A DNA stretch of 64,000 nucleotides from Narcine bancroftii. Its lineage: Eukaryota. Below the pieces are notes generated by a model. The model was not told the origin of the DNA. It saw nothing but the letters and a program-made list of their open reading frames with translations, and did not search any database. The DNA lies in NCBI RefSeq assembly GCF_036971445.1, contig NC_091481.1, positions 13,950,001-14,014,000 of the forward strand, read 5' to 3'. Position 1 is the first letter of the stretch, and each line of letters starts with the position of its first letter. Positions 11,900-57,300 of the stretch are shown piece after piece. The position numbers and the translations under genes were made by a program.

Positions 11900-12310
11900 C
11901 CCTCATCCCCACCCCGGATCTGCACAGCCAGCCCACACACGGCCTCCTCCGCTCCGGCCGCACGGGGGTGGCTCCAGTCCGGGTTTTTGCAGCGGCTCCG
12001 ACTGCGGGATCGGATCGGAGCGAGCGGTCGACACCCCGCGCAGAGCGCGAGCGTCGGCCAGCAGTGCCCTGGCCGCAGGAGCAGCCCGGAGACCCGGCTG
12101 AAGGGTAGCGCCCGGATCCGGACCCTCCCGCCCCTTGCCCCTCACTCACTGACCTCCAGCCTCTCCTCGACTTATTTCTTTTTAAGACCCTCTCTGGTTC
12201 CTCCCCCCTCCGCCACTTCTTCCTTCTCCCTCCTGCTGTGGATCATCTGGACCCTCTTGGACTGGGCTGCTCCTGGGGAGGTCCGCGATGTCCTGGCTGC
12301 CGGCACTGTG
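11900..12310. promoter_or_regulatory. CpG island, probable kcp promoter and 5' UTR
   Basis: The only non-repeat CpG-dense, GC-rich stretch in the window, directly upstream of the signal-peptide ATG. Confidence 0.75.
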
Positions 12311-12390
12311 CCTGGTGGCACAGGCACCCCTGCTGTGGCAGGTAGTGGTTGGAACCCACATCTCCCAGCCCTACTACCACCAGGAAAATG
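12288..12390 (+). CDS. kcp: kcp exon 1: signal peptide [34 protein letters not shown]
   Basis: ATG at 12288 (ccgcgATG) next to a CpG-rich region, hydrophobic leader, strong donor G|gtaagt at 12391. The phase-1 end joins exon 2 to give [10 protein letters not shown]. Confidence 0.85.
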
Positions 12391-30300: not shown

Positions 30301-33300
30301 AACATTGATTGTTACTCTTTCCATGGATGCTACCCGACCTGCTGAGTGTTTGCAACACTTTCTGTTGCTATTTCAGATTTCTGCCATCAACAGTTCAATT
30401 TTCATTTCTTGTGTTTTAAATATATTTAAATTTCTTTTATAAACTTTAATCAATTCAGGGTTTGAAATTCCACTTACTCCACTAATAACATTTTATGTTA
30501 TAAAGTTTTAAATAAGATACACTTATAAGTGCATGTATCAAGAAGAGCTTTGAAAATTAACCATTGAACTTTACCATGCCTAATTTTTTAAATCAAGCAC
30601 ATTAAAGTACGTCACACTGCCATACATGTCAACCCCTGTCCTCTTTTTCTTAAGCCTCTTCAAAAGAGCCCTGGAACTGGACCTTCATTAGATTTTACAA
30701 AATATTGTTCCTAAAGTAGTAGTTACCTTTTTTTTCTGTGATATTTCAGTTCAGAGCATTTATTTATTTTTGTCTTGTAGTGATTGACCTCCTGGAAGCC
30801 CTCAACATCACAAGATCTGTAAGGGGAGTGAGCAAAAGCAAAGGGTTTGATCCAGGTGTCCTGGCTTGGAAATTTCGTAAGCGTGTGCCACATCTCACCC
30901 TGCCGCGGGACTATGCCATCTACTTCCTCACTTCCATGCAGGGCTCCATCGGCTTTCACTTTGTGGCAAAACAGAGCAGGAACTCCGAGGGAGCAATCAT
31001 CTCCTTCGCCTCTCCCACCATTACCAAAAAGGATGGGCATCCACTTTTACAGCTCACATCCAGCACCAGAAGCAACCAGCTCTGGCTGGATTACCGGACT
31101 GTGCACAACATGGAGCCAGCATCCATTGTCTTTCCAGGAGGAACTCCCTTTGGCAACGGGCAGTGGGGCAGGGTGGCCTTCAACTTGGAGTCTCAGAGAA
31201 TAACACTTCTCATCGACTGTGAAGAAGACATTGTTTTTGAGAAGAACATGGGCGATGATGCCATCAGTCTGATTCTTCCCATTGATTTGGAGATTCACTT
31301 CTCCAGCACTGAAGGAGGAGGCAGCAAGTTCACGGTAAAATGGTGGCTCTAAGCCCTCTCTCATCTTCCTCAACAAAGTGCTGCTCCCCTGTTTGGTTAG
31401 CAGTTGATTAAAAAAAAAAGGCCATCAAGTTCACCTTCTCAATCTTCATAATAATAGAGAAATCCATATCTATCAGTCCTGCTGCAGTCCCAGACATAGA
31501 AGAGCAAACCCCAGCGGAGGGAATTTTAGGAGCCATGATTCCAAAACCACCTGTTCATTTTGACCACACTTGTCTAGCCACACAAATGGATTCCACAGTT
31601 CTGTGAAATCTGTCCAGTCAATATCCTCAAGAAGGCCCATTGTCCTTTACTCCAGTGTGATCTCTTGAACAGATCACATTTTTATTTATTTCTGCACATT
31701 GGTTGCCTTCCTGAATGGTCCTTTTGTAGTGCTTCCACAGGCATCCCAAGCATTAAGGATGCTACACGCTATCATCCTCAGGTTTATGATACACAAGGCT
31801 TGCCCGCCAATCCTTAATAACTTCACCAATAAGATTGCAACAGAGGGGACAACTCATGCTTTCGGAAGAGATGCAATCTGTAAACTATTCTCTCTGCCCC
31901 ATCTGAAAGTATTGGATCACTCTCCCATCTCCTTTGAGATGCTGACATTCTTCCCCTACTTTCAAGATACTAATCCTTACCTTCTCCCCTGAAGATAGAA
32001 GCAACTTTCATCCTTCCTCTGAAGGCAGGGACACCCTTTCTGTCCCACCTTTGAAGGCATTAGCCAATTGAAGACACTAATTCACACCCCAACCTTCCCC
32101 AAAACATACATCTAATCACTCTGATGTCATTCTACCCCTCCTTTGAAGCCCCAGACTTATTCAACCTTTAGATATCTGTATCAGGAAAGAACTTAAAAAT
32201 ATAAAGAGAAGGAAACCTTTACAACCAGTGGTAGAGTCTAGGATGTTAGGACTTATCATGAGAAGCCTGCTCCAAGTAACCAAACTGGTTGTCTCTTGGG
32301 CAGAGATTCTCTCTGATTTTCAATTGGCTCTTTTTTACTTTTGGTTTGCTGTCTCTTGATTTTGGATAACTGTCAGACTGAGAGTCAATCCTCTTTGGGC
32401 TTGCTCTCAGCTGAAACTGGGATATCTTTCAAACTGCGGCTCTCTGTCCACTACAGGGATACTGGCAGACAGCGGAGATCTCTCCAAGTGGATTCACTCA
32501 TCGTCCTTGGCACTGCGACAATCTGCCAGGTGAGAAGGGGACAGAGCTGACCTGAAATTCTGGGGTATGGGGGAAGGAGGGACACATGGGGAAGGAGGGG
32601 CACACATACAGAGAGAGGGAATGATTTGGGAGGACAGTGAGAGGGTAGGTGAGGCTGTAGATGGGATTGGGTGAGGAAAGGGAGTAGGTATAAAGAATGG
32701 GGTGTGTGTAGAGCAGGGGGAGGGCATGAGAATGAATGTACATGGGGATTGTTCAAGGCTGAGAATCCTGGGAGAGTAGATAAGGAGGGGGAATGAACCT
32801 GGGGTAGTGTGCATGGAGGGCCAGTGTGCGAGGTGGGGTAGTATGTGAGGAAGGCAGGATAATATGTAAGAGGTGTTTTGCCTTCTCCGCAACTCACAGG
32901 CTTAATTTGAAAAAAACAGCTCACAGAGCTTTCAGTGACATTGTGGCCCCAGGGGCATTGATCCTTGGAAGATATGACTCAAGTCCTACATGCTAATGCC
33001 TTCTCCCACTGCAGCTCCCACTGGAAATGTGGCCCTGGTGGGAGGAAAGCTGGAGTCTCCAACATGTTTATATTGGAATTGCACATCAAAGCTATTCCCA
33101 GACCTAAACCTCCCTTAATTGGGTCCCATTAAATGTTTCCAGGGCAAATCAAGGACAGTGATCTGCTCTGCAGCCCGAGCCACTATTCCAATCTGATCTG
33201 GAGAGTGGATAATCTTGGGGCTAATGATGCCTCCTTCCTGATCCCTGCCTGGGATTTTCTCTGGGAATGACTAGCTGGTCTATGCTGAGCTTGATGACCA

Positions 33301-36300: not shown

Positions 36301-39300
36301 ATCCCTCAATGAAAGTTCTGTGTGACCTTTACCATTTCATTTTTATTTCTGCAGAAATTTAGGGATTTGCCCTTATGCCAATTAAATAGATATTAAAATT
36401 GCTCTTTGAATGAAAGACTCCAGCCATTCTGTGAATCACTATTGCCTTTTTAAGCATTGCTTTCTATGAGAGCACAGTGAATGACCCCGAACCTGATTAA
36501 ACAGTCTCTCTGTACAATTAGTAAGAGATCTCTTACCATTTACAAAGATGATTGTGGTTTTTACTGTTGAATTTGTGGCTTTGATGACTGGATTTCTATA
36601 AATATTTAAGATAATTTGGCCTGTCTTTTTCAGATTCCTTACCTTTGCCCTACTCATTGGCTGAGGAGCGTTACGCTGATTCAGATGAGGTATTTCAGTT
36701 CAATGAGGATGTCTCTGCTCATTTGATGTCCTTGTCCAACATCAGCCAGGATCGTCAGCAGCAAAATGATGCTGAAGCTCTACTTTTGACCCAGGATCTG
36801 AAACCCAGAAGCCAAGAGGACCGATTAAATAGGTTGGAGGAGATGGTGACCTCACTCAGCACAATGCTGGACATGGTCAAAGCTCGGGTAGGTGAAAGCT
36901 AGGTTCAAAGGCACGAATGGCCAACAATACAATAGTTTACACAGGCGCTGACTCACTGGCCAGAGTCACACAGGTGCTGACTCACTGGCTGGAGTTTACA
37001 CAGGCACTGACTCACAGGCCGGAGTTTACACAGGCACTGACTCACTGGCCGGAGTTTACACAGGCACTGACTCACAGGTTGGAGTTTACACAGACGCTGA
37101 CTCACAGGCCGGAGTTTACACAGGCGCTGACTCACTGGCTGGAGTTTACACAGGCGCTGACTCGCTGGCCGTAGTTTACACAGGCACTGACTCACAGGCC
37201 AGAATTTACACAGGCGCTGACTCACTGGCGAGAGTTTACACAGGCGCTGACTCACTGGCGAGAGTTTACACAGGCGCTGACTCAATGGCGGGAGTTTACA
37301 CAGGCGCTGACTCACTGGAAGAGTGTTAGTAACACCCATCAGGATGCGGTTCGTTTAATACTGACACAGACTGGTTGGGCAAACAACTGTTGAATTTATG
37401 CTTTGGAAGCAGATGTCAGGCTCCTGGGCAATGGGTTGAAGTAAGGAAGTTATGATTATTACGATTGAAAACAATGTAAAATGGGCCACAATTCTGCCTT
37501 TTGGATACAGGGCCTGGAGTGAGTAATGAGTGTGGATGATAAAGAGTTCTGAATTCTCCAATTTTTCCTTGTGGACCTACTCTCCTTCTGTGAACCTTGT
37601 TCCAGGTGCTGAGCTTGGGTTAAACATAGTTAGGAAATGAGACCCTCTCCCCAGCTGTGCAATTTGGGGAAGGTTTTTTGATCTTGGCTCCAGGAAAGGA
37701 CCTCCTTCTCTCTATCTGCGACCCCAAGTGAAAGGCTATTCAAGAAGCAATGCATCTAGCCTGTGACCTCACAGAAAAGCCAAGCTGTATCAAATGGCCC
37801 CACTATCTTCCAGCCACGGCCCCAATAAGAAGCTTCCCTTTCCAGGACTGCTGTTACCATTGCGTTTGTGATGCCTTGCTTTCTGTCCTCGTTTAGAATT
37901 CAGAGCTTCTGCAGCGGATTGAGCACCTCGAGACATGCGAATGCAGGAAATCCGTATGCTTGTGGCAGGGAAAGGAATACGAGGAGGGCCAATCCTGGGT
38001 CCTGGACCCCTGCAACACCTGTGCCTGCAACAAGGGAGAAATACAGTGCTCAAACCAGGAAGATAACCCCTTGTGTCTCAGTAAGTAGTGTACTGTGGAT
38101 CGAGAAGGGAAGAGTTGCTTTGAACTCAGTCTACATGACATTTTATGGATAATATTCGCATCAAGATTATAGTATTACATAGAATACACAACAGAAATGG
38201 GCCATATAGTCCAACCATGTCATTCTAGTGTTTTGACCAAGTTCTATCAGCATTTTTGGCTGGCTCGCCAAATGTGGATGGTCGCTTTTCAACCACCTTG
38301 GTCCAGGTCCTGAGTGGTGCTCAATTCTTCAGTAAATGTATCATAAAGAATGGAGGACTCAGGTACTTAGTTTCCCCAGTACTCCTTTATTACATACAAG
38401 CTTGGTGGGAAGTTCATCACCACCTTACCCACTCCACCATCAACCCCGAAGGGGATCCAGGAACTCTCCAAACACACAATTACATCGTTTTGTATAACCC
38501 GCTGCAATTGGACTTGACCAATCCAAGAAACAATCTTCTCCCATGTGACAAGCATTACCCTATCATTATTAAGCTACACACTATTCATCTGCAAATTGCA
38601 TCATTTAGGTGGCACGGTTGGTAGAGTGGTTAGTGCAACGCCCTTGCAGTGCCAGTGATTGGAACCTGGCTTCGAATCCTATGCTGTCTGTATTGGGTTT
38701 ATACATTCTCACTGCCCACATGCGTTTTCCCTGTGGGCTCCAGTTTCCTCCCACCATTTGAAAAGTATCAGGGGTATAGGTTAATTGGGTGTAAATTGGG
38801 CGGCACAGACCAGTGGGCCAAAATGGCCTGATACCATGCTGTATGTGATTTGATTTTTAAAAATTAAAATTTTGAGAAACAATCATGTAATCAGGTTCCC
38901 CTTTCCTCAGCCATTGTTCTCGCACGCCAACTGAATGGGGAAACTCCAGGCTGGTGGAAACCTACAAGCTGGGCAGGGGTAGCCCACCAACAAATGACAA
39001 AACCATTATCGCATCAATCAATACTACATTTCTTGATTACATTACTTTGTTCAGGCTCTTACCTCTCTGTTCTTTATTTCCTCCTCCTTTGAATGGTTCT
39101 CTGGTCATAAAAAAAATCATCTCCTCTGTTTGCTCAAGAACTTCTGTATCTGCGAGTTCACATTTTCTTCACCCTCTGGTAAAGATGTTCTGTCTGAATG
39201 TTATATTTAATGTTAGATGACCATTCATTGTTGATGACCATTTGTATTGCTCATCCACACAAGGAGAACTATTCTAAATCTTTTCTGTTGTACTGTTTCA

Positions 39301-42300
39301 TTATTTCTGCTACAGTTAGGTCAGCTTCTCTGCATTCCAGTCTGCCTGGCTTCCAGGATCATCCTTGTAAATCTTCTTTCCACTCTCTCCAGTCTTCTAC
39401 ATTCTGTCTATGATGTGGAGACCAGAACTGTACACAACACTGCAAGTGTGGTCTAACTCAGGTCTGTTACTGGTTTTCTCTAACTTCTAGACTTGTCCCT
39501 TCTTTCTCTTTGGAAATAAAAGCATAGGAAATGATAGCATCCAGTCCCTCAGGTCTGGTCTGCATTCATTAAAGTCAGATTTCAGATTTATTGTCAAAGT
39601 AGCATACATGACATCACATATATCCCTGAGATTCTTTTTCCTGTGGGCAAGGCAGAATTGCCACTTATTTGTAGTGCAACAAAACTGTATTCAACTCCCA
39701 CATGTAAACAAATAAAGAAGTGCGAACAAACTGTGCAATACAGAGAGAAAATAAATCAATAACATGCAATAGTAAGAGGCCTTAAATGAGTCCCTGATTG
39801 AGTTTGTTGTTGAAGAATCTGATGGTGGAGGGGTAGCAACTGTTTCTGAACTTCATGGTGTAAGTCTTGTGGCACCTATACCTCTTCACTGATGGTAGTA
39901 GCGAGACAGAGCGTGTGCTGGGTGCGTGGATGCGGTGGTAGCATTCCCTGTGGATGTTCTCAATGCTGGGGAGTGGTTTACCTGTGACATCCTAGCTGTG
40001 TCCATGACTTTTTGCAGGGCTTTAGCTCAGGGGTATTGGTGTCCCCATACCTGACTGTGATGCAGCTGGTCAGCACACTTTCAACCACACATCTGTAAAA
40101 ATATTTGTCGGGGTTTGCAATGTCATATCAAACCTCTACAAACTCTTGAGGAAGTAGCGGTGCTAATATGCTTTCTTCACAATGTTGTGACTGATGTTCC
40201 ACCTCATTTGCATTTCCCTGCCCTGCCCCAACGCTTGATTTCCATAACGCAATTGAATGTTGGCTTTCAACAGTGATTTCACAAGTACACCCAGTCCCCT
40301 CTGAACATCAGCATGAAGCAGTCCCTCACTGAACAAAAGACTGCATCTTTTTTGTGCACCAGAGTGGATAAGTTCACTTTTTGCCATCAGGTGTATTCTA
40401 TCTGTCATGTTCCCTCCAATTCACTAAGCTGGTATGTAACACCCTGCAGCTTCTTTACATCCTTTTCCCCACTCACAATTCCACCTATCAACAGCAAACT
40501 TGAATCGCCTGAACCAGCTCATTGATGTATATCATCGTAAAAGGGGTCAAGCTTTGTCCCTGGACTACCCATTGGCCTTAGCCTATAAGCCTGAGAAAGA
40601 TTTGCTTATTTCAGTTCTTTGTTCAATAACAACTTATCAGTCCATGTCAGTATGTTGGCGCCACTGCCTGTGCTTCAATATTATTGACCATAGAACATTA
40701 CAGTACAGAAATAGACTGAAACCTCTCTGAAAATCGAAATGCACCACGTCCACCTTATCTATTTTATTGGTTACATCCATGACGAACTACATCAGGTTAC
40801 TGAATAAGCCAATGAAATTAAAACTACCAGATATAACATAGTAGGTAGCCTTCTCTCAGTTTTGAGTGAACCTACATCTCTCATTTGGGGCATGAGCCCA
40901 TGAACCAGGCTCACTCTCCCAGTGCAGATTTTAGAGAGCCATGGACTTTGAAGGGCAGACTGCACGATCAGAGGTGGCATTTTTCAGATGAAGCATTAAT
41001 CCAGATTCTGCCTTTCCTTTCAGGCCGGGATGTCAGGGAACCTGTACCCCACAACCAATTAGCTGTTCTTGTCCCTTCTCTCACTGTCTCATGCTCTGAA
41101 CATTCTGCTTCATTCCTAGATCCTTGTTCTAGCAATCCATGCAAGAATGGAGGTGTCTGCCAACCTCTCACCTCTGACTCCAGGATGCAGCCTTCAGGAT
41201 TTGCATGTAACTGCCCAGCAACATCCACGGGGCACTTGTGTGAAGACCGTTTGGTCCAGGTAATGACATTGTTGAAGGCCTGAAAATATTGATCTTTATA
41301 GAAAACACAGCTCAAACAAACAATCAGTGCAATAAGAATATTGGAAATAGACATGGGTCCATCAAAGTCAAGCCATCTCTAATGAGGTTCATCCCTCAAA
41401 CATTCGCAATGTGGCCCACATTTCCTTTCAATAATCTTATATGACTCCTTTTTCCTCCCTGTTTCTCCATCAAACTCTGTCCTTCTAGGCCCTAACTCTC
41501 CAAGCCCATCCTTCTACCACATCCAGGGTAAAACGGAGAGAGTCTGTACTCACTGGTCTATTCCAGATATATCTGTGCATTAGTATGGGGAGATTTTTGT
41601 GACTATTTGGCAGATAACAATTTAATAATATTCTGTTGGCTCTGTAGGTTTGCACACTGCCTCGGGTTAAAGGCCGTTGCACTGGTGGATACGATGCTCC
41701 CAGAAGATGCTGGTTTTACAGCAGTTTCTCTGGTCTGTGTGAAGAATTTAATTACAGCGGCTGCGGAGGCAACAAGAACAACTTTGAAACACATGAGGAA
41801 TGCAAGAAGAGGTGCGAGGTTGGAGCTTGCTGTTTCCGGCAACCTAAGTTGTCCAGTGTTCTAATTGGCTATGACCAAGAAGGCTATGATCGCTATGGGT
41901 ACAATATCTCTGGTTTGAACCGAAATGGTAGGCAGGTGGTGGCATTTAACCCAGTACGTTCTGGGCCGGCATTATTTGGGCAACTCTTCAGTGGCTTGAG
42001 TGATGGACGAGAATTTGATAAATATGGGTTTGACAAACAAGGATATGACCGGGATGGGTTCCACAAGGACACTGGGTTTAACCTCACAGGCCACAACAAG
42101 AAAGGAGAACACGACTCGAGAGCAGAGTTTGATGCAGCAGGATTTGATGCATATGGCTACAACCGAGCCCAGTTTGACTGTGCTGGGATTAACCGTGAGG
42201 GCTTCAACTATCTTGGATTCTCTGCGAGCTACATCTATCATTGTGAATATCTGACAAATTCTCATTGCCAGGCTATCAACAGAGTTGACCCAAGAAGAGA

Positions 42301-45300
42301 GGTGGTCAGCTTCAGGCCAGGCCAAAGGTGTGAGGACGTCCAGTGTGGTCAGAACTGTGGCTGTACCTTCCACAGTCGCTCCTACCGTTTTGGAGAGTCC
42401 TTCAAGTATGGCTGTGAGATCTGCTTGTGCAGCTATACAGGGGTGATTGAGTGCAACTGTCAGCATGTTAGTCAACGCAAGGAGATCCGGGACATGATGG
42501 CTGAGGAAATGATGGTTTACCAGGCAGCAATTCGGGATCTCTACTTTAAACAGGGTAAAGTCCAATTTTTTCTCCACATGTTACTCGCATATATGAAAAT
42601 ATATTTTTCATTATTTCATAAAGCATAGGTATCCATAATTGACCCCAACAGTTCTTGAATCATTGCTTTCTGTCTGGTGAAGGTGCTGCCTGGATGTTAT
42701 ATGCAATGATAATGCTTCCAAGTCAAGGTGGTGGGTGTGAAGTGGAGCTGGTCTTCCTATATGTTTGTTTTGGTCTTTTAAAGTGGCAGAGATCACAGAA
42801 TTGCAAGGTTCTAACAAAGAAACTATGGTAGTAGTGTATCTTGCAGCCAGGACACCCAACAACCACACCGATTGAAGGTGCAGTGGATGACATGCAAATC
42901 AACTGGGTTGTTATGCTCTGGTTGGCATTGAATCATTGAGTGATATTGAAGCTGAGCTCATCCAGGAAAATTCCTAGCAGAAAACACGATGTGATTGTAG
43001 TAAAAACATAAAACTGTTGGAGGAACTCAGCAGGTCTTGCAGTATCCACAGGAAGTAAAGATATATCCCAAAGTTTTGGGTCTGAGCTCTTCACCAAAGT
43101 AGTGATGAAGGTCTCAGGCCCGAAATGTTGGTTATATATCTTTACCTCCTATGGACGCTGCAATACCTGCTGAGTTCCTCCAGCAGTTTTAAGTATTCCC
43201 TAACAGTCCTGACATAACTTTGGTTGGTACGAGCATGAGAATTTATTATCATATATTCTTGCCACCACACACATGAAAGAACAACAACCGTATGCATTAT
43301 ATTACCATGACATGCCATGAAACAGAAAGAGATAATAAATACAAAAACATTAGATAAATATTCACAGTTGCAGCTAATGCAAAAGAAAAAGATGTTTCAA
43401 TTATACAGACAGATCTTTCGGTGATCCCACAGTAGCTTCAGAGTAGTTCTGGTTAAGGATCATATGGGCATGTTCAAGGACCCAAAATTGGGGGAAAAAA
43501 GGCTGGACTTTAGGGAAAAAAAACTATTGGGGAAAAATTTTTCTTGTACCTGGGTGTGCTGTGTTCAGGTGAGCCTGGTGGAAAATTAGTGGAAATCCTT
43601 TGGGAAATGCACATGTGCATGTGATTCTGTATGTTTACGAGTGTAACGGTGTGTTCAATCAGAATCAGGATTTATTGTCATGAACAAGTCATAAAATTTG
43701 GTGTTTTGCAGCAGTAATGTCTTATGACATTACTATATAAAAAAAATTTAAAATAATAGTACACAAAAAGTAAGGCAGTGTCTTAGGTTCATTGATTATT
43801 CAGGAATCTGATGGCAGCGGGGAAGAAGCTGTCCTTGTGCCGCTGAGTGCTCGTCTTTAGGCTACTGTACCTTTTCCCTGATGGTAGCAGAGTGAAGAAA
43901 GCATAGTCTGAGTGGAAGGGGTCTTTGAGGATAGAGGCTGCTTTTCTAAGACACCGCCTCATGTATATGTCTTTAATGGAGTGAGGACTGATGCATGTGA
44001 TGTCACAGGCCGAGTTAATAACCTTCTGGAATTCTTGTCCTGAGTGTTGGTGCCTCCATACCAAGCAGCGATGCAACCAGCCAGAATGCTCTCCACACTA
44101 CACCTGTAGAAGTTTATGAGAGTCTTTGGTAAAATACCGAACCATCTCAGACATCTCACAAAGTATAACCACTGCCAAGCCTTCTTTGTGATTGCATCAA
44201 CATGGAGGCTCCAGAACAGATCCTCAGAGATGTTGACACCTGGGAATTTGAAGTTCTTGGCTCCCTCCACTACTGAGCCCTCAATGAGGACTGGGCCGTG
44301 TTCCCCTGACTTCCTCCTGAAGTCCACAATAATCTCCTTGGTTTTGCTGATGTTGAGCATACGGTTGTTATCATTACACCGTTCAACGAGCTGATCTATC
44401 TCCCTCCTGTACACTTCATCATTGCCATTTGTGATTCTGCCAACAACTGTGGTGTCATTGGCAAACTTGTAGAGAGCATTGGAATTGTGCCCAGCCACAC
44501 AATAATGGGTGTATAGTGAGTAGAGCAGGGGCTAAACATGCATCCTTATGGTGCACCTGTGTTGATGATCAGTGAGGAGGAGCTGTTGTTTCCAATTTGT
44601 ACTGATTGTGGTCTTCCAATTAGAAAGTTGCAGAGTGGGGTTCAGAGGCCTTGAGTTTATAGCTCTTGACTAACACTGAGGGAATAATGGTATTGAAAGC
44701 CGAGCTGTAGGGAGTGCCAATGTAACCGTATCAGATTCCTGGTGCTTTGAACCTAATATGGATGTATAATTACAACTATAGGTGTGCACATGTGTGCATA
44801 GTGCCCTATTTCACATGAGCTGTTTAATCAAGGCTGCATCCTCTCAGTACCACGTAAAACATTGCGTGACATTGTGGGGTAACATTTACCTCTCAACTGG
44901 TATCATTTACACATGCTTTTTCATATAACCACCATGTGCCTCAGAAACAGGTTTAATCCGTTTAACCAATAAGGCAGTTCCCCCTCTTTTCCCCTCACCC
45001 TATCCCAAATTGCTTTATATTCTCTAGGTGACTGGCCAACAGGTTCTCTGACATTGAATCCAACAGGAATTCACAGAAGTAGCAAAAGTCTGAAGCCCCA
45101 TGTTACTGCAGTGCCACAGATAGAAAATATCAAGGTTATCTGATATTCCTTCACCTGTTTATTTTGTTCAATTGTGAGAGAATCAAGTAATCTTTCATTA
45201 GTTTGTTGTTTTGTGGAATTTTATAGTTGGAGTTTTCTTTTAAAAATCTATGCTTCTTTGGTTGCAAAAGGCTTTGAGGTGCCATGAGAAAATAAAGGCA

Positions 45301-48300
45301 AAAAGCAAAATTCTTAATGTTTCACTATGTCTCAACAGGTACCTGGGAGGAGTTTGCCAAGTTAAAAGCAGAGTACTTGCCACAAGCCAATGGACTGTCC
45401 ACCTTTCTCCCCTGGCATCGTTACTTCCTCCGAATGGTGGAACGAGAACTGCAGAAGATATCATGTGACATCACCATCCCATATTTTGAATGGACCATAG
45501 ATGCAGGTTCGATGGAAAGTTCTACCGCATGGCAAGGAAACTTTTTTGGGGCAAACGGAGACCCTGAGACAGACTGCGTCTCCTATCACCCTTTCCAGCA
45601 AGACAGTGAATGGGTTCCTTGCCTTCGTCGACGCTTCAACTCTTCCATCAATCTTCCAGATGCAATCAACATTCAATTGATATTAGCAGAGCAAGACTTT
45701 GACCAATTCTCCACTCAAATGGAAACCATCTCAGGGCTCTTCCATCTCTGGATCGGAGGTCATATGGCCTCTCCTTTTAGTCCGTATGATCCAGTTTTCC
45801 TGTCTCATTATGCATTTATAGATAAACTTTGGAGTCAGTGGCAGGACCGCAGCCCAAGTGGCCTGCCCCGTTACCCATCTGAACTCCGATTTGTGAAGAT
45901 GAGGCCATTTGACATTGCCCCAGATGATCTCTTGTTATCTCAGCAACAGCTTTGCACAGTGTATGTTCCAGTCACACTCGGTGCTCCTTGCAACTATACA
46001 AATTCCAATTCCTTGCATCGTGACCAGAAAGGCTACAACAGGAAAGATTTTGATCAAAACGTACATCCAGATACACAAAGAAGTTACGATATCCGTGGGT
46101 ATGACCGACAGGGTTACGATCGTAGCGGCTTTGACCAGAGCGGTTGGAATCATAATGGTTATGGCAGAGACCATTTTAACAGGGATGGTTTTGACATTGA
46201 AGGATTTGATGTTTCAGGGTACGATCGTTATGGTTTCAATCGATCTCTGGTCACGCCATTTGGAATGTGGAAAGATGAGACCTATCAGCCTTATGTTAAG
46301 GTAGAAGTTATCGAGTCACTCTTTGATGGTGGCTATAACACTTATGGATATAACAAGTTTGGCTTGGATAAGAATGGGTTTGATGTGTTTGGTTTTGATG
46401 AGAATGGATATGACAAAGACAATTGCAATTATTTCTTCAAAGGCCCTCATCACATGAGATTCTATTTCTTTGTCCAGCAGCAGCTCTACATGGCAAGCCC
46501 TGATCTGCTGCTTAATATTAAACGTATCTGCCCCCCAGTAACCCCACTCCCAGATTGGTGGCTTGTACAGAACTGGATGATCACCAATGTGCACATCATC
46601 CGGCACATTGAAGACAAGTGGGCTTCTCATCATCCTTTTGACAGCGGATATATCCCCCACATTTCTTCAGTGAAAGGCAATGGCCTTTGGCTTCCTGTGA
46701 CCCCCAACATCAGGTAGGTACAGAATCATTGAAGTGTTTGATTGCAGTTCCATTACCTTTAATGAAGGTGGGTATGATCGTCTTTGTTCCAAGGTATTTC
46801 ACCACTTGTCCCCAACTGGTAGAATCCATCATGCTCTATTCACAGTCAATCTATTAATTCAGTTCTATTAAATATCCTTTGTGTTTTGCTGCATCAGTGG
46901 GAACAGTTTTTACAATTTGCATCTCTCCTCAAGACTAGAATTTCCCTTCTCAGGAATTACGCTGGTGAATCCATGTCTATGCACTTGGATTTAATATCCT
47001 TTACTCTATAGAGTGATGATCTGAACTGCACAGAGTTTCTAAGATGACCTCAACATAACTGTCAATAAATTAATTAATCTTCTTTACTCTATAATTAACC
47101 ATGGGATGGTGTTTCTACTTCAGAGTGTAATCACTTGTCTAGGCACAAATCGTGCCCAAAGTTGCATTTGCATTGAAAAGCAATTTTAATTCCTGTCATG
47201 TTTTTGTTTTCAATTTGCCAAATACTAACTCTGTGATGCATTCGTGCAATTAGAAAGCATGTTAGAATTTAATGGATTAATTTAAAAAATATCCTTGATA
47301 CACTTTTTTAATTAGATGTAATCAATATTCAAACTGTTACTTCACATTGGGGTAATCTGATTTGACAGAAAATTTTTAAAAAACTAAGTCAAACTATTTA
47401 TGAATTAAATTTTGATAATGTTGTGAAAAACAAGCTTTTTAGTCTCATGCTCAAAAGAATCAACTTATTTTTAAAATGCTTAGATGTCCTGCAAAATATT
47501 CACAATTGATAGAACTTCACAATGACGATTTTCTCTAGACTAGGGCAAGATTTGTGCCTGGGCCAGGACTGCGGGACAGTGTTTGTTAAACTGAAGTGAA
47601 AGGTTGCAGAAATTTGGTTTGCCCTGAACGTAGTTGTACTTTTAAAATATTTGGCAATGTCTACATTGATTGTGAATGAATAGTGCAAATCTTGCAGAAA
47701 TATATATTTAAAAATGCTGTTTGATTTTTATGGTTATGAAATGGCCTGTTTGCCCTTCAGTTCTGCACTTGCCAATTTACAATGCCTCCCAGATAAACTG
47801 CATTTTGATTTGAAAATTCTCCGCTGTGTTTTCCAATTCCCTCATGGCCTTATCTTAATCTCACCCAACCCTTTAAGATCTTGTGGTTATCTAGCTTCAA
47901 ATATCCCCAACTTTGATTAGTCCATTGGAAGCCATTTCTTTCCTGTCCAACCTCAATCTTTGAAATCTTTCTGTAAATTACCTCAGTAAATATATTTTCA
48001 CCCTATTATGATTGTTAAATATGCTTCATTAACGTATGTTTTCATTGTTGTCATTTTAGCTCCCAGCACTTGAACTGTTAGAATCTTTTGTTTAGAATCA
48101 GGGTGGCATGGATTTGTATAGCATGGAATGGACCCTTCAACTCAATGTGCCCATATCAACCATGAATTCCATCTGCCTGCATGAAGTCCAGATTTCTATC
48201 AAATGCCTTTAAAATCCTGCAATTGTACATGCCTCTACCACTCCTCTGCAGCTTCTTCCATATAACCACCACCCTCAGTGAGGGGGGGGGGGGGAAGCCC

Positions 48301-51300
48301 TCCCTTCTCTCACCTGAAACTTGGTTTAAGAATCCCCCACCTGAAGAAAAGAGGGCACCGTTCATGCAGTGGTCAGTGCAATGCTGTTACAGCATCAGTG
48401 ACCCGGGTTCAAATCCTGTGCTGTCTGAAAGGAGTTTTGCACATTTTCCCTGTGACTGTGTAAGTTTCCTCCAGGTGCTCCGGTTTCCTTCCACGGGTTT
48501 TGTAAATTATTTGCTGTATTTGGGAGGAATGGACTCCTGGGCCGCAAGGGCTGTTGCTATGCTGTATACCTAAATTCAAAATTTAGATAGAGACCATTTA
48601 TCCTATATATGCCCCTCATAATTTTATGTGTCACCCCTCGGTCTCTGATATTTAATTCCATGGCTCTCAACATCTGTACACTTGGTGATACCAAGAGCCT
48701 TTTCATGGTTGGTTGTCTTTTCACATGCCTCTTTTTTCTTGCCTTGTAGGTTTTGCTTTGAGCTACACTGGTATTCAGGCTGCCCACTCGGGACTCAGCC
48801 AGTCAGATGCCCTGACCTGTGCCAGCACTCCAAGTGCCTGGGATTCCCAAACATGGAGTGCCGAGTCCATCGCTGTGGCACCTGCTTCAGCGAGTGGTAC
48901 AACGGAACCACAGGCCGCCACGTCATGTGTCAGGGTTGGTTACCAGCATTCCCCAGTCCATCCGTTCACTTGGTGTGATTGCAGGGTTTTCAGTTGGGGC
49001 TGAGGGAGATGGGGGAAGTGTGGTTCTTAAAGGGGGTTGTCTTGGGTCTTGTGGGAGGGAAGACAAGTTTGGAGTAAAACATAAAAGTCTGCAGATGTTG
49101 TGATTGTAGTAAAAACATAGAAAAGCTGGAGGAACTTATCAGGTCTCACAGTCCATAGGAGGTGTTACTGACATTTTGGGCCTGAGCCCTTCTTTTAGTT
49201 CTTTTTGAGCTACAGGGAAGGAGCAGATGGTTCTTCCACATGAACTTTGCCTTTTGGCAAAGCGAGACTGTCCCACTGCCCAGAACACTTTCTCCAATCT
49301 CGTTGCTCCTCTTAATTCTATGTAATCTGTTCTCTCTCTCTTTCTCATGCCCACTAACATTTCCTGATTTACCCACCTCCTGCCTTGTGGATGTGCATGG
49401 AAATTGCAACAATTGGGGTAACCCTTGTAGGCACAGGGAGAATATACAAGCCCCACATAGCAAGGGGAGGTGAGGGTCAAGCCTGTCATTAGATGTGAGG
49501 TAGCACTCCTTTGCTTTCTGTTAGGTCAGTGAGGTGAAGGGCCTGATTGCAGAGGTGGGGCTGGGGAAGGGGACTGGTCTGTGTTTAAACAAGGAGGCTG
49601 GACTGCAATGCAGAGAGGGGCTGTTTTGGGAGTGCAGAGGGTAGGGCTTTGTCAGGAGCGCGGGAGCAGTGTCAGACTTTGGAGAAAAGTACTGCATTGG
49701 GCTGTGGAGTTGGGAGGGCTTGTGGGGAGAGGAAGGGTTGAGTGGAGAGGAGCAGTCATGTCGGAGTGTGTAGATGATGTCTGCACAACACTTGATACAA
49801 ATGATGGGATTAGAGCATTCTTCACACCTGCCTTTCAAACTTCTTCACTGTTCTTTCTCAAGCCAGGGCTCGGTAATTGCCCCTGGATTTGGATCGCGGT
49901 TATCACAATATTCTGCTGCAATTGAATGTGGTGCATTTGGATTTTCAGAAATGTCCTACAATTGTATGACACTTTATAAATCCCTGAGGAACAGATCCAA
50001 CCCTAGAAATGGACAACCTGATGGTCTGTGCTAGTTATTGGGTCCAGACTCCAACAATGGCACATAAGGATGCATTAAAAAAATTGTGGGAAAGATATGA
50101 GCTGGTGATGATCCATTTCTGAGGGGAACAGTCATTCATGTTTGAACTGTTGTTTATTGTACATCCTGCCAATAACATGAAACTTTTCCTGCTTTCATTA
50201 CTGTTTTAAACCAGTCCATTAGTCTATTTTAATTTCTCTCTTCATTTAACTGTTGCTCTTGCAGCATGACCCTCCCATTATTTCCCATTATGCACGCTGC
50301 TGCATGTTTACTCATTCCCTTTACTCTGATTTTCTTCCTTTTAGGTTGTACAGTTGATAAGAACATGAGATAGACAGATTTTTCGAGCTGGCAGCTCTCT
50401 ACATGCCAGGGTGGTGAAGTGTATTGTTTGAAGTTGCACTGTCCAGATCCTAGGAGCTGCTAACATCCAAATGTTCTTCTTGTGGTGGTCTAGCCTGTTC
50501 CCCATCCATTGCTCCCTCAAGTTCATGCAGTGCAATCCCAACCATTTAAACATTCAAATGAGTATCAAAAGCAACAGGGGAAAAAAATGATAATATCTAA
50601 AATAAACCATCTTCTCTTCACCAGAAACTGTCTTCATAAACCTCACACTCTTTCAGCCATTTACCCTAAAACACCTCTCAACTCTGTACCACTGTAACCC
50701 TTTAATGGAATTACCAAGAATGGGAACTTGTGGATATTTCTCTTTTCTGCTACATATGTCTCTAGGCCCTCTTCCCTTTCTCTGCTTGACCTTGCTACCT
50801 GCCCCCTTCCCATCAGTCCAAGAGTATCTTGAGCCTGATCCATAACAAAGAAAACAGGAATGAATTGGGGGGTGAGCAATGGTGGTAGGATGTTTTGGGG
50901 TTACAAGGAGGGAGAATGGGAGAAGAGGAAAGGGGACCAGTGATCATGCAAGGCAAAGATAGCAAATGGAGAAAAAGGAAGAGGGGTACAATGAAAGGAA
51001 TTATCTAATGAGGTAAAGAGATGAGAGAAGATCATTTTGGGGGGGTGAGGACTGGATAATTAACTTCTGAATAAATTAAACATGGGCAATTAAAATTTAT
51101 AAGATTAAATTGAGTGTGGTCCTGATTGTTCAAAATGTTGAAAGCACTGAGATCAAGCCTTAGAGATCCTTATATTGACAAAGTACAGAGGTTAACACGG
51201 GGAGGGAGGATCAATTGGAATAACACACTAATGGAGCAAGGGGTCGGGATAATCTGTATATGTGTGCAGTTTATTGGAATAGTGTGGATGAGGGGGATCA

Positions 51301-54300
51301 GGTATTTCTGGACTGGGGACTCAAATGTAAAAAAAATTGCCATTTATCCTCTTTCTGTTAAAGGTTGTAACTACAATGGACAGACTTTTCAGAATGGGGA
51401 TTCAGTCATCATTGATACATGCATGTCCTGTGTGTGTCTGGTGAGTGAACAAAGCAAGGAGTTGGCATTGCCAAGGCTTGGGCAGAGGGTCAGCTTCAGG
51501 AGAGGGCAATGAAGAATCAGAGGGGGAATAAGTCAGCACCTTCTGGAGAGGGGGAGCGAGTCAGAAGTTACTGGGGAGGAGGAGCAAGTCAGCACCTACT
51601 GGGGAGGGGGAACAAGACAGCACCTTCTAGGGAGAGGGGCGCGAGTCAGGACCTTCTTTGGAGGGGGAGCAAGTCAACATCTTCAGGGGAGGGGAGCGAG
51701 TCAGCACCTTCTATGGAGGGGGAGCAAGTCAACATCTTCAGGGGAGGGGAGCGAGTCAGCACCTTCTGGGGAGGGGGGGCAAGTCAGAAGTTACTGGGGA
51801 GGAGGAGCAAGTCAGCACCTACTGGGGAGGGGGAACAAGACAGCACCTTCTAGGGAGAGGGGTGCGAATCAGGACCTTCTGGGGTAGCACCAGCTCCTTC
51901 ACAGGATGGGGAGCACCTTTAGGGAAGAATGCCTCAGCGGCTTCAGGGGAGGGGGAGAAGCAGCAGCACCTTCAGAGAACACCTTGGGAGTGGGAGAAGC
52001 GACTCAGCACCTTCAGGGGAGGAGGTAGCACCTTTGGGGGAAGAGCAACTCAGTGTCCTTAGAGGATGGGAGCGGCAGCTCCTTTGATGATGGAGTGGGG
52101 GGTGGGCGACTAAGCACCTCAAGAGAGGGGGGAGTGACTCAGCACCTTCAGCAGTTATGGGGGGAGGTGATGAAAATATTATGGGTTATTTGGGTAGTTG
52201 TACACTTGACTTTAGGTCTGTGCTGAAGCCAGTGAGTGATGCAATGCCTCTGTCCTTTTGAAGAATGGAGATATATTCTGTGCGCCTGTGCAGTGTCGTC
52301 CCCTGAGCTGTAAGGATGTCGTGCAGAGACCAGGATCCTGCTGCCCTGAGTGTGCCCAAGGTGAGTAGTGAGTGTCAGGAGTATTTGCTATTCTGTTTCA
52401 TGTTTATTCTTTCATGTTGCACTCATTTATCCCAAATTGTGGCTGTTAATGAGACAGGAGACTGTGAACATTATAGGTGCTTTTGGAGATATGTTTGGTC
52501 CAGGGAACAAGAGTGCTGGCAACAGTTTGATTTCATGAGTCTTGAGTAAAGAGTGGATAAAGCTGAGGTTCAGAACACCTTGTGATGTACAATCCCTCAA
52601 CTCTGCTGATTCCCTGTATATTTTGTCTCTCCTTCTGGCATACCCTCAAGATTAAGAGTGATTTGTTTCCACACTAGATCTGTGGCTTTAAATGTGGACA
52701 ACAAGACCAATGTGGAACCCACATTCTGCACTGATGGTGGACATGTCTCTGAGTAGATGATGAGATGACTGGTTCCTTCTACCATTCATGCTTGACTTTG
52801 GTGTGTGTGAGCATGAGGCTCCACTGCCATCTGAGCAACATACCTGATACCAGTCCAACAGAGCCACTCATGGTCATGGTCACATGATGCTGAAGTTGTT
52901 TCAAATGAACCAAATGTAAATGGAGGTAAATTTCTTCAGGAGGCAGATACGAGGAGGTGCTCTAAAGTCCTTCACGTGTTGAAAAAGGCTACAAGGTATT
53001 TTTTGACCTCTTGTGCGTTGAAGACAAATGGATTCTACACTTATTTAGGGAGTAGCTCTCCTTCTCCTGGGAGGAGAAGCATGGCAATGACTGTCCATGT
53101 AGCAGTTAACATCTTGGTGATGGTCACAATTACACCTTCTGTAGAAAATCCTCTTCCTCCCAAAGACTGTAGATTTGCCATTTAACTTCTTCTCTGCCAA
53201 GTGCTAGAACTTTAGTTGGGATACCATCTGCTTACAAGCATTTTCAATTTTTTTAATAATCACAAGTAGCACTAGAGGTGGACTGGATAGAAGATGGAAT
53301 CAAGGGCATTCGTGTAAGGTCAGAGTTACAATTAGAACAAGAAATAGGAGCAAGAATTGGCTTCCTGGCCTACCCCACCATTCAGTGAGATCATGGCTGT
53401 TGTGACAATAGGCTTATCTCCATCTACCTGACTTTTCCCCACATCCCTTAATTCTCCTACTATGTAAAAATCTATCTGACCTTATCTTAAATATATTCAC
53501 TGACGTAGCCTCCTCTGCCTCATTGGGCAGCGAATTCCATACATACATCATCCCCTGGGAAAAGCAATTCCTCCTCATCTCCGACCTAAATCTACTACCC
53601 TGGATCTTATGTCCCCTAGTTCTAGTCTCCCCCACCAATAGGAAAACTTACCTACCTCTTATTTATGCCTTTTATAATTTTATATGTTTCTACAGGATCT
53701 CTTCTCATTCTTTTAAATTCAAGCAAGTACAGCCCTGATAACTCAATCTCTCCTCATAGGCTATCCCTCTCATCTCTGGAATCAACCTGGTAAACCTCCT
53801 CATGACTGCCTGCAAAGTCAGTACATCCTTCCTCAAGTGAGGAGACCAGAACTGCATGCAGTACTCCAGAAGTGAAATCACCAGTACCCTGTTGTAGCAT
53901 AACCTCCCTGCTCCTAAATTCAATCCCTCAATCGTTGAAGGCCACCATTCCATTTGCCTTCCTGATGGCCCGCTGCACCTGCAAAACAACCCTTTGTGAT
54001 TAATACACAAGCACTCTTAAGTCTTCCTGCATGGCAGCACGTTGTAATTGCTTCCATTTTTACTTCCAATGTGGATGACCTCACATTTGCCTACATTGTA
54101 CTCTATCTGCCAGACCTTTGCCCATTCTCTTAACCTAACTATATCTCTGCAGACTCTCCATATCCTCTGCACAATTTGCTTTTCAATTCATTTTAATGTC
54201 ATCAGCAAACTTGGATACACCACACTCTGTCCTCTCTTCCAGATCATTAATATATATTGTGAACAGTTGCGAGTCCAGCACCGACTCCTGTGGCATCCTG

Positions 54301-57300
54301 CTCACCACTGATTGCTAACCAGAAAAAAGCCCCTGTATCCCAACTCTCTGCTTTCTGTTGTTTATCCAATCCTCTATTCATGCGAATACATCACCCCCAT
54401 CTCTATGCATCCTTATCTTCTCTATGTCTTTATGCTGCACTTTATCGAAGGCCTTCTGGAAATCCATGTAAGCAATGTCCATTTTCTCCCCTCTATCTAC
54501 CACATTCATTATTTCCTCAAAGAACTCTGGTAAGTTCATCAAACAGGACCTGCCTTTGCTGAATCCATGCTATGTCTGCCTGATGGATCCATCTCATTCC
54601 AAATGCCTTACTATTTCTTCTGTAATGATCGCTTCAAACACAGATGTTAAACTAAATGGCCTATAGTTCCCTGCCTTTTGCCTACATCCTTTTTTAAATA
54701 GTGGCATGACATTCGCCGTCTACCAATCTGATGGGATCTGTCCAGAGAACTTCAGTATTTGTCATTCTGTAAGTGATGTGGACATTCTAGCTGTCTTGCG
54801 CTTTACCAATATTACATTTCTGCAGATGCCAGTGCCAGGACTGTTGCTGTAGTTACGTGGTCTTGTATTTATTCCCCTTCCTTTCTGTTACCTCTTGCCA
54901 GAGGATTGCCTCTTTCCCATCCTTGGTGTTGAAGTTGCCCAGGAGGATCAGTTTTTTTCTATCTGGGATATAGACCAGGGTTGGAATAATATCCTTGTTC
55001 CCTCGGTAGATGTCAGGGTTGAGGCAGAGAATCATAGCATGTTGATTCAGTATTAGAGTGAACCAGTGAGTTATTTTATGGAGGAGGCAGTGAGATGTGG
55101 ACTGGCTTATTTTTGGTGGCATAGTTCACTCCATGAAGATGGTATTTCTCTTCCAGTTCTCCCCTCCAGAAAGGGTACTCACACCCTTGCTTGAACACGC
55201 CATCTCCCTATTGATTTGCCTTATGCAGGGTAGCTACATCAATGACAGGGAGTGCCCACATGAAACCTGACATTCTCAGTGAGGCCTGGATCCATTGGCA
55301 TGGAAAACCATGATGAGTGGAGACCGTTCTGCCTTATAAACATTGGCCCTCTGTTGCAGAATCTCTTCTCTTTGAGACTGCCACTTCTTCACCACTCTGA
55401 CTTCCTCCCAACCTTCCTTTGATACCCACTTCAAACCCTTAACCCTCTATCAATTATGGGGCACTGCTGCCTATATCCCTGGTGACATTCCACTCCTTCA
55501 ATACCTGGTCCTGTTCCTGCCCTGCCTGCTCACTGAGCTGGGGAGAGGATGCTTGTCTGTTTCTGGGAGTGTGGCAGGCTTGTGATCGGCTTGGAGGATG
55601 CAGTGTGGTGCCTGTTGTGTGATAGGGAAGGGACTGTTGTTTAATAGAGGCATGAGTGTCTCAGCAGCAGGATCTTGGATGGCCGAGACTGGGGTGGTGA
55701 GGCCATTTTTGAGGCATCAGGAGCTCGGATGGGCAGGTTGCTGGGGCTTAGGAGAGAGTTTGTGGTAGGGGTATTTGGGACCCCTGGTGGGCAGGCTGAG
55801 GATCCATGGATGTGGTGTTGAGAGTGCCAGTGGGTGGGCGGTGAGGCGAAGGTCTGCAGTCTAGGCGAGTGGAGTTACGGTAGTTGGGCAATTAGGAGGT
55901 CAGGTTAGGTGGACAGTGTTAGGTAAAAACATCATGAGCTGGGAATGTAGAAGGAGTCACCCAGTGCTGGGCCGTAACAAGATGCAGTTGTGACCTTGAC
56001 TCAAGATAAGAGTGGGGATGACAAATTGATGTGCAGGAAACTAGCAGAGAAGGATAGCAACAGTTTATTCAGTGGACAATGTCATGGTATGATAATTTAC
56101 TAAGTACGTATCCTAAGGTATATAAAAAACACCACTTGCTGATAACGGCAGAATGCGCCTTCTCCAACTAACACTGTTAGTTGCAAGTGTTACAATCTGG
56201 CAATAAAGAACAAAGAACCTTGATTTCGACTCAGTCTGGTGTTTGACTCACTCATTCATGAACAAAGCAGACCTAACAACAGTCAGAGCCAAATATAAAG
56301 GGGTTGACTTTTACATGGGTATTATGGGAAAAAAACAAAATTTTTAGGCCAAAAAAAAGGGGGGGTCGACTATTACATGTGTATATATGGAAAATGGTGT
56401 TAAGAGATAGAAAAGAGAAGCACAATGTTCAGTATAGAGCAGTACTGATAAATAATTAACAATTCCTATTGATCAATTTGCTCAGAGCTTGATGTTCATT
56501 CTGTTCATGTGTTGGTCAAGACCATTCAGCCTCCTACACCACTTAATTAGTTCATGACTGATCTGCACTGCAACCACTTACACAGACTTACTCCTGTAAA
56601 AATGAATCCTTTTGTCAAATAAAAATCGTCTGTGTATGTGTATGTATGGCCATGCCTGTTGGCTTCTTTGTCTCTGTGTTAACCTACTCCCATAGTTAGA
56701 AACCATAGAAAACTACAGCACAGAAAACAGACTATTCAGCCCTTCTTCTCTGTGCCAAATCATAATTCCTCTAGTCCCACTGACCTGCCCCCATTCCATA
56801 ACCCTCCAGACCGCTCCCATCCACGTATCTATCCAATATATTCTTAAAACTTCAGAGTGAGCCTGCATTTACCACGTCGGATGGCAGCTTGTTCCAAACT
56901 CCAACCACTCTCTGAGTGAAGAGGTTCCCCCAAACCTTTCTCCCTAAAGGCATGTCCACTCGTATTTATCTCTCCCAATCTAAGTGGAAAGAGCCTCCTT
57001 GCATTTACTCTGTTTATTCCCTCATAATTTTGTAAACCTCTATCAAGTCTCTCCTCACTCTTCTACGCACTAAGGATTAATATGCCAACCTGTTTAATCT
57101 TTCCCTGTAACTCGACTCAGTAGTTGTGTAATGTGTTTTTTTTAGGCTGTGCCAATGGAAGAGCTCATGGAGAGAGCTGGAAGACTGAAATGTGTACCCA
57201 ATGCTCATGTGAGGTAAGGATGACCCTGTGACATAACATTATTCTCAAAGTGGAGTGAAGTTGAGATGAGCCACCCAGGTCAGACTCATTCCACCTTGTG

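Follow-up and report, generated by a model that had tools for sequence, protein, structure and literature searches.

A stretch of 64,000 nucleotides from the ray Narcine bancroftii (contig NC_091481.1), which is called here the window and whose numbering is used throughout, encodes a domain with the fold of tyrosinases that lacks most of the histidines expected at their copper site. This raises the question of whether the domain can still be a copper enzyme, which protein carries it and when the site was lost. The earlier note on this DNA took it for a probable pseudo-enzyme.

Results

The domain is a part of KCP

Fourteen exons with GT/AG splice ends, lying between positions 12288 and 60897, were joined into 1,399 stop-free codons, and their product is 83.8% identical to KCP of Hemitrygon and 83.4% identical to KCP of Rhinoraja over about 1,395 residues. 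The tyrosinase-fold domain is an internal domain of the growth-factor regulator KCP and has no gene of its own. Proteins of the KCP/kielin type combine many VWC repeats with one C-terminal VWD domain, and the proteins with which the exons of the window share 84% identity have 26–27 VWC repeats and one VWD. In nine scanned KCP orthologues 20–32 VWC stretches were registered in all nine and VWD in seven; in the ray the remainder of the gene, including VWD, lies past the window end.

The order of parts, all on the plus strand, is a signal-like start, a LamG-like head, a coiled-coil-like stretch, VWC, an inserted module (exons 6–9) and the VWC array. Exon 1 (12288..12390) carries the start codon and a hydrophobic stretch recognized by eye as signal-peptide-like. 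Exon 2 (30781..31334, 89% to P0024) encodes the LamG/TSP-N-like head, which gave no Pfam match in the window copy and a Laminin_G_3 match in the relative P0054. Exons 3–5 (32457-32529, 36634-36887 and 37897-38080) supply a linker, the coiled-coil-like stretch ending with LETCEC and the first VWC repeat, and end in phase 1. The module begins in phase 1 with the EGF-like domain of exon 6 (41120..41259) and continues in exon 7 with a Kunitz/BPTI domain (41648..41818, E 1e-14), the first block of G[YF]Dxx pentapeptide repeats (41867..42169), a short VWC-like Cys-rich unit (42362..42460), seen by eye and having no Pfam match in the window copy, and the N-terminal helix of the tyrosinase domain with RKEIRD (42476..42554). 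The body of this domain (45339..45979), with all six copper positions, the second repeat block with its highly conserved Asp (46097..46420) and a helical tail (46451..46713) follow in exon 8, while the Cys-rich unit of exon 9 (48750..48934), which ends in phase 1 and has GTTGGT as its donor, closes the module. Exons 10–14 (51364-51440, 52264-52360, 57146-57213, 58977-59073 and 60815-60897) start the VWC array. No gene adjacent to KCP was recognized in the window that could serve for a synteny comparison with mammalian KCP. Thus, the domain is the core of a module of approximately 870 residues with the order EGF-Kunitz-GYD-(VWC-like)-tyrosinase-GYD-Cys-rich-tail. Its placement mostly in one exon, as claimed earlier, holds for the body, but the first ~26 residues (42476-42554) come from exon 7.

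Exons 6–9 (about 870 codons) have phase 1 at both ends, their omission leaves the frame open, and their presence in the full-length mRNA is taken from database gene models. Deprived of the module ray KCP would have about 2,340 residues, which is close to the 2,327 residues of Xenopus kielin.

Reading through the exon-9 donor (48934-48940, plus strand, GTTGGT) gives G-W. Eight fish models (P0002-P0005, P0008, P0010, P0011 and P0013) stop with one Trp directly past the last aligned motif of the module. The gene may therefore be split at this donor, or have a short isoform that ends with the module, for instance in teleosts. Downstream of it, a broken VWC exon with in-frame stops and a short deletion was found at 50345-50460 (plus strand); its skipping preserves the frame. 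It matches a 58-residue repeat of the ray and skate models P0024 and P0026, which has no counterpart there in shark, coelacanth, sturgeon and newt models. Introns of the gene also accommodate tandem repeat arrays with low-complexity open frames (51449-52062, plus; 36956-37354, minus) and, in intron 1, a near-complete LINE ORF with endonuclease and reverse transcriptase (24099-27665, plus) that has one stop at about 26190. LINE-like fragments were noticed at 43789-44531 (minus), inside the intron that splits the tyrosinase domain, at 1118-2047 (minus) and at 13481-13879 (plus), one of them matching RVT_1 and one Pfam ALKBH8_N.

Only two of six copper ligands are preserved

The frame matches PF00264 (Tyrosinase) with E 1.5e-27, and since the score of 97.8 bits is far above the cutoff of 22.6 a chance match is ruled out. 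At the copper positions the domain has K45365, N45389 and H45416 (CuA) and S45731, H45743 and Y45809 (CuB), that is K-N-H/S-H-Y, exactly as had been read by eye in the earlier note. Instead of the six histidines of type-3 copper proteins only two of six are present and four positions are non-His; the two remaining ones, H45416 of CuA and H45743 of CuB, belong to separate copper sites.

The register was established against the Streptomyces tyrosinase 7CIY, the ligands of which are given in the accessible part of PMC6312201 as His38/54/63 and His190/194/216. For CuB residues 12-52 of the translated segment 45695-45850 fall on residues 189-229 of 7CIY at equal lengths, and S45731, H45743 and Y45809 are equivalent to His190, His194 and His216, respectively. 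For CuA H45416 corresponds to His63, and N45389 to His54 by a 3-residue extension beyond the start of the alignment. The spacing of the first CuA histidine is variable and its position was assigned by multiple alignment. Of the 140 outgroup domains, which come from the best 150 of 5,052 matches, 130 have His in this column, as do 7 of 8 domains of the sister proteins described below. The possibility, raised earlier, that the histidines of GGHM (45761..45763, plus strand) or LSHY occupy ligand sites was rejected on the basis of this sequence register, as they coincide with residues 200 (H45761) and 215 (H45806) of 7CIY, neither of which is a ligand position. The LSHY histidine is an ordinary scaffold residue: of the 140 outgroup domains, drawn from the best 150 of 5,052 matches and mostly equipped with six ligands, 132 have it.

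Other marks of the scaffold, as type-3 copper proteins are characterized in the accessible text of PMC3658974, are all in place, which confirms the earlier impression that the scaffold motifs are intact. They are the H2(8)H3 and H1(3)H2 spacing, Phe at position −4 of both His3 (F45404 and F45797) and D45821 at +4 of CuB His3. The set K-N-H-S-H-Y is the same in KCP of the skate (P0026) and the newt (P0035); the substitutions proposed for checking in orthologues are thus shared, and together with the stop-free splicing of 14 exons this rules out an artefact of assembly, a pseudogene or a sequence error.

Two more histidines deserve mention. His45587 of the motif CVxxHPF (45587..45589, plus strand) is family-specific, its place being mostly taken by Gly in six-His tyrosinases. 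It occurs in 44 of 45 second-copy domains (the copies are defined below), 9 of 15 first-copy domains, none of 8 sister domains and none of 140 others (from the best 150 of 5,052 matches). His45761 was registered in 41 of 45 second-copy domains against 11 of 140 others (from the best 150 of 5,052 matches), being rare but present in six-His enzymes. Both are conserved across the second-copy clade and rare in six-His tyrosinases.

The fold is retained

An AlphaFold2 model of the domain, built with 100 sequences, has pLDDT 93.5 and pTM 0.91, and according to this model and the PF00264 match the four-helix-bundle tyrosinase fold is retained. Its best structural counterpart is Bacillus tyrosinase (Z 25.4, rmsd 1.9, 209 aligned residues, 32% identity), while for TYRP1 these values are 19.8, 2.2, 205 and 22%. 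The opinion that the domain looks more like invertebrate or fungal tyrosinases than the TYR family therefore stood in so far as a bacterial enzyme is ahead of TYRP1, but fungal proteins are not singled out, since Aspergillus catechol oxidase (Z 20.8, rmsd 2.1, 207 aligned) is only 1.0 Z above TYRP1.

The model of the whole exon 8 (46 sequences, 457 residues) reached pTM 0.84, and pLDDT of its repeats is about 80-90, which suggests that the tyrosinase fold, the repeats and the tail, predicted to pack onto the fold, form one packed unit. If the tail was included, the number of residues superposed rose by 40-50 on chains with a C-terminal shielding domain (192->244 for 4yd9_B, 191->241 for 3qjo_A and 189->230 for 8b74), and no gain was obtained on chains that have none (205->204 for 1wx2_A and 207->206 for 4j3p_A). 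As the rmsd of the tail superpositions is about 4 and similarity of the folds is not implied, we take them as a weak hint that the helical tail may lie over the former copper pocket. The G[YF]Dxx repeats and the tail correspond to no Pfam family, and their Atlas leads scored only 0.78-0.81. A wide fold search with exon 8 was saturated by matches of the tyrosinase domain, and a new fold is not claimed.

Histidines are lost in KCP of many animals

In a search among long proteins 246 candidates were compared, and 17 of them proved to be relatives at E<=1e-10; 13 of these are named kielin/chordin-like and 4 "uncharacterized". They come from sharks, rays, a chimaera, a sturgeon, a coelacanth, a newt, a brachiopod, a scorpion, a bivalve, an argonaut and three tunicates. 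The domain is present in named sharks, coelacanth, sturgeon, teleosts and newt, and in brachiopod, scorpion, shark, sturgeon, coelacanth and newt proteins alike the LamG head precedes it and the VWC/VWD tail follows it. Frogs and amniotes were not represented among the named matches of the searches for relatives. A query with the newt VWD region yielded no KCP name among the 120 of 1,921 matches listed, mostly FCGBP and zonadhesin, and is uninformative on loss; disappearance of the module from frogs and amniotes is, consequently, unproven.

For comparison 221 domains from 181 proteins were collected, and after removal of 8 short and 6 gappy ones the alignment had 208 rows including the window. 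The outgroups are the best 150 of 5,052 matches with near-copies kept, hence the counts are not counts of independent events. The 60 KCP-type domains retain at most four of the ligand histidines, and one of them retains that many. The full set of six is present in 112 of the 140 outgroup domains, which come from the best 150 of 5,052 matches. The vertebrate clade (26 domains, the window included) consists of 10 domains with one His, 15 with two and 1 with three. His45416 is retained in all 26, while the second CuB histidine (45743) is replaced by Arg or Gln in 10 of them. Across orthologues the third CuB position varies as Tyr, Trp or Met and the first CuA position as Lys, Arg or Tyr. The loss is not specific for vertebrates, being common to KCPs of tunicates, brachiopod, molluscs and scorpion. 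Most invertebrate KCPs found (all 7 named ones, with differing losses) have two copies of the domain and vertebrates have one; three invertebrate second-copy domains are devoid of all six histidines.

The domain of the ray is 75, 73 and 71% identical to those of coelacanth, sturgeon and newt, respectively, as compared with 62, 64 and 61% for the VWC array, 83, 81 and 81% for VWD, 73-79% for the VWC-like unit (42362..42460) and 47-52% for the Kunitz domain.

A six-histidine module is the nearest relative

The phylogenetic tree was built by IQ-TREE from 65 of 208 rows with the six ligand columns excluded and midpoint rooting, and it includes no beta or gamma references, a motif check having revealed no gamma sequence among the proteins collected. 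The KCP-type clade has support 99/95, its first-copy and second-copy groups 100/98 and 100/99, and vertebrates plus tunicates 99/94. The first-copy group contains the long-branch row P0104, which lacks a VWC array and is perhaps not a KCP. Outside KCP, P0073, P0087, P0095, P0099 and P0103 are tyrosinase-fold proteins with Gly at the second CuA histidine and the other five present, three of them forming a 100/100 clade, and P0077 (3,109 residues) combines multicopper oxidase, two tyrosinase and subtilase domains.

Proteins with the Kunitz-GYD-tyrosinase arrangement (P0056, P0058, P0061, P0065, P0070, also P0067, P0068 and P0069) are the sister group of the KCP type (99/90 jointly, 100/99 alone). 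Like the KCP module they have Kunitz, GYD repeats, VWC-like unit, tyrosinase and tail in the same order, but no VWC array or VWD by Pfam, and some contain Kazal or TIG domains. Six histidines are present in 5 of 8 sister domains, and among the three others is a fragment that does not cover the first two columns. The relationship extends beyond the tyrosinase fold: when the tyrosinase domain is left out, the exon-7 flank still matches 6 of the 7 sister proteins compared, with E from 6e-16 to 2e-28 (P0058 gave none under the cutoff), and the exon-8 tail matches 5 of 7 (E from 9e-13 to 4e-6), while neither matched any of 5 ordinary tyrosinases and hemocyanins. A Kunitz Pfam match was obtained for 5 of 7 scanned sister proteins, and a Kunitz-like stretch is seen by eye in P0065 and P0070. 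A scan of prokaryotic genomes with P0070, which as a single-protein scan reaches close relatives only, confirmed 0 of 2 pattern matches.

The simplest history suggested by these sequences would be that a Kunitz-GYD-tyrosinase-GYD module whose dicopper site was functional entered the KCP gene, was probably duplicated before the protostome-deuterostome split and lost this site in both copies, of which vertebrates would have retained the second alone. Because the sister proteins are unnamed, the direction of these events rests on the shape of the tree and the midpoint root.

Discussion

Thus, four of six ligand positions are occupied by other residues, the scaffold is kept, the domain is strongly conserved and the nearest relatives of the whole module have six histidines. 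Since the six-His feature is lacking, the KCP domain is not classed with functional type-3 copper proteins; it is most likely a pseudo-enzyme outside of them, and its earlier designation as a probable one gains support from the register and the shared loss. The host gene is, by sequence, the same as Xenopus kielin and mouse Kcp, with head, VWC array and VWD in common, but the accessible texts of PMC6750614 and PMC10315795 assign to KCP only LamG, VWC and VWD, whereas the ray form adds the module of ~870 residues. The word "tyrosinase" does not occur in the accessible part of the former. According to the same portions of both papers, mouse and Xenopus KCP enhance BMP and suppress TGF-beta/activin signalling.

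Among type-3 copper proteins the domain resembles the alpha subclass, including Bacillus and Streptomyces tyrosinases and molluscan hemocyanin units, in fold, ligand spacing, Phe at −4 of His3 and Asp at +4 of CuB His3; it differs in the replacement of four ligands and in being embedded in a 3,000-residue VWC protein. Its best sequence and structure matches are alpha-type, in a comparison where the tree lacks beta and gamma references. TYR, TYRP1 and DCT of the gamma subclass have the same superfamily fold and preserve their metal ligands, and TYRP1 is 22% identical. The transmembrane segment expected in gamma proteins after the domain is absent from the sequence and Pfam layout, where repeats, the Cys-rich exon and VWC exons follow. 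The idea of a separate vertebrate tyrosinase-like lineage therefore survives in the sense that, as far as tested, the domain stands apart from TYR/TYRP1/DCT, but it is an internal domain of KCP and occurs in invertebrates as well. Hexamerins, as described in the accessible part of PMC10511194, also retained the type-3 copper fold after the loss of the canonical His site. However, they belong to another branch (Z 5.9-7.8 versus 22.9 for bacterial tyrosinase) and are free storage hexamers, while the KCP domain is a part of a signalling modulator. PF00264 is already assigned in database rows of KCP relatives, so that the fusion is visible in annotations, and one sentence in the accessible text of PMC11667028 remarks in passing that there are spiralian tyrosinase sequences which are very long and contain kielin/chordin-like domains. 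The ascidian alpha tyrosinase of PMC9395347 is, judging by its accessible part, a distinct protein with intact histidines. Searches of an open-access library turned up no account of the common loss of histidines, of the two-copy history, of survival in vertebrates or of the six-His sister module.

Based on these data we consider it likely that the domain is an old pseudo-enzyme within secreted KCP, acting as a structural or binding module. With Lys/Arg, Asn, Ser and Tyr probably occupying the former copper site, a dicopper centre would not form, and neither binding of O2 nor oxidation of phenols would be expected. The repeat block and the helical tail, packed on the fold, would make one rigid unit. 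Lying between the LamG/coiled-coil head and the VWC array that binds BMP and activin, this unit may have a structural role and attach to proteins or to the matrix. Such a module would affect where and how KCP is held outside the cell, doing no chemistry, while BMP and activin would be handled by the VWC array. Binding of Ca2+ by the Asp-rich repeats is a guess. Several observations do not fit easily: the conservation of His45587 and His45761 in the second-copy clade is unexplained; metals can be bound by hexamerins at relocated sites, in some cases with oxidative activity (accessible part of PMC10511194); and inclusion of exons 6–9, which can be skipped in frame, is based on database gene models. 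Furthermore, since mouse and Xenopus KCP, as presented in the accessible texts cited above, are listed with LamG, VWC and VWD only and nevertheless enhance BMP, the module is apparently dispensable for this function.

The two unexplained histidines would acquire sense if one Zn or Cu ion were bound at a remodelled or relocated site formed by some of His45416, 45587, 45743, 45761 and 45806. The domain would then be a structural or sensing element that depends on metal, and some redox activity might persist. The counts of 44 and 41 in 45 second-copy domains against 0 and 11 in 140 others (from the best 150 of 5,052 matches), the invariance of His45416 in 26 vertebrate-clade domains and the hexamerin sites outside the canonical pocket (PMC10511194, accessible part) speak for it. 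Still we regard it as rather unlikely, as His45806 belongs to the ordinary scaffold (132 of 140 others from the best 150 of 5,052 matches), His45761 is found in six-His enzymes too, 10 of the 26 domains of the vertebrate clade lack His45743 and none of the six is left in three invertebrate second copies. An extension of this idea, which appears distinctly unlikely to us, is a working secreted tyrosinase module captured by the ancestor of KCP and rebuilt as a sensor; its second copy would hold either one metal or a phenolic compound at a newly formed site made of His45587, His45761 and retained histidines, with read-through at exon 9 producing a short secreted module-only protein.

It is quite improbable that the former pocket binds phenols, DOPA-bearing or tyrosine-rich matrix proteins with no turnover and tethers KCP to tanned or phenolic matrices. 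Residues adjacent to the site (F45740, W45749, P45773 and S45731) are conserved in the clade and the fold is intact in the model, but the bulky and varying Tyr/Trp/Met and Lys/Arg/Tyr at CuB His3 and CuA His1 of orthologues argue against it, and the predicted tail may, by a weak hint, cover the pocket. The idea of an egg-case tanning enzyme of sharks and rays was rejected: the site is most likely dead and the domain also occurs in bony fishes, newt and invertebrates. Finally, there is very little chance that we deal with a functionless relic decaying within KCP or with an annotation fusion of two adjacent genes. Additional His losses in teleosts, the eight fish models that stop one Trp past the module, the absence of frog and amniote proteins among the named matches and the in-frame skippability would agree with it, while the 71-75% identity across jawed vertebrates, higher than in the VWC array, the same embedding between LamG head and VWC/VWD tail from brachiopod to newt and the open frame of all 14 exons are against. 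The preferred reading is a conserved pseudo-enzyme with a probable structural or binding role.

For annotation this means that a PF00264 match in KCP is no ground for listing the protein as an enzyme of melanin formation or tanning. Since the module is bounded by phase-1 introns, its clean deletion is possible in fish or newt, and its function is directly testable. If the sensor reading were true, availability of BMP/TGF-beta would depend on metal or on the tanning state of the matrix, and a whole regulatory arm of KCP would have been lost in frogs and mammals. The alpha subclass was reported to be absent from arthropods and chordates (accessible text of PMC3658974), whereas an alpha-like domain survives, presumably dead, within KCP in sharks, bony fishes, coelacanth, newt and scorpion, and the data suggest that mouse and frog KCP represent a shortened form of the ancestral protein.
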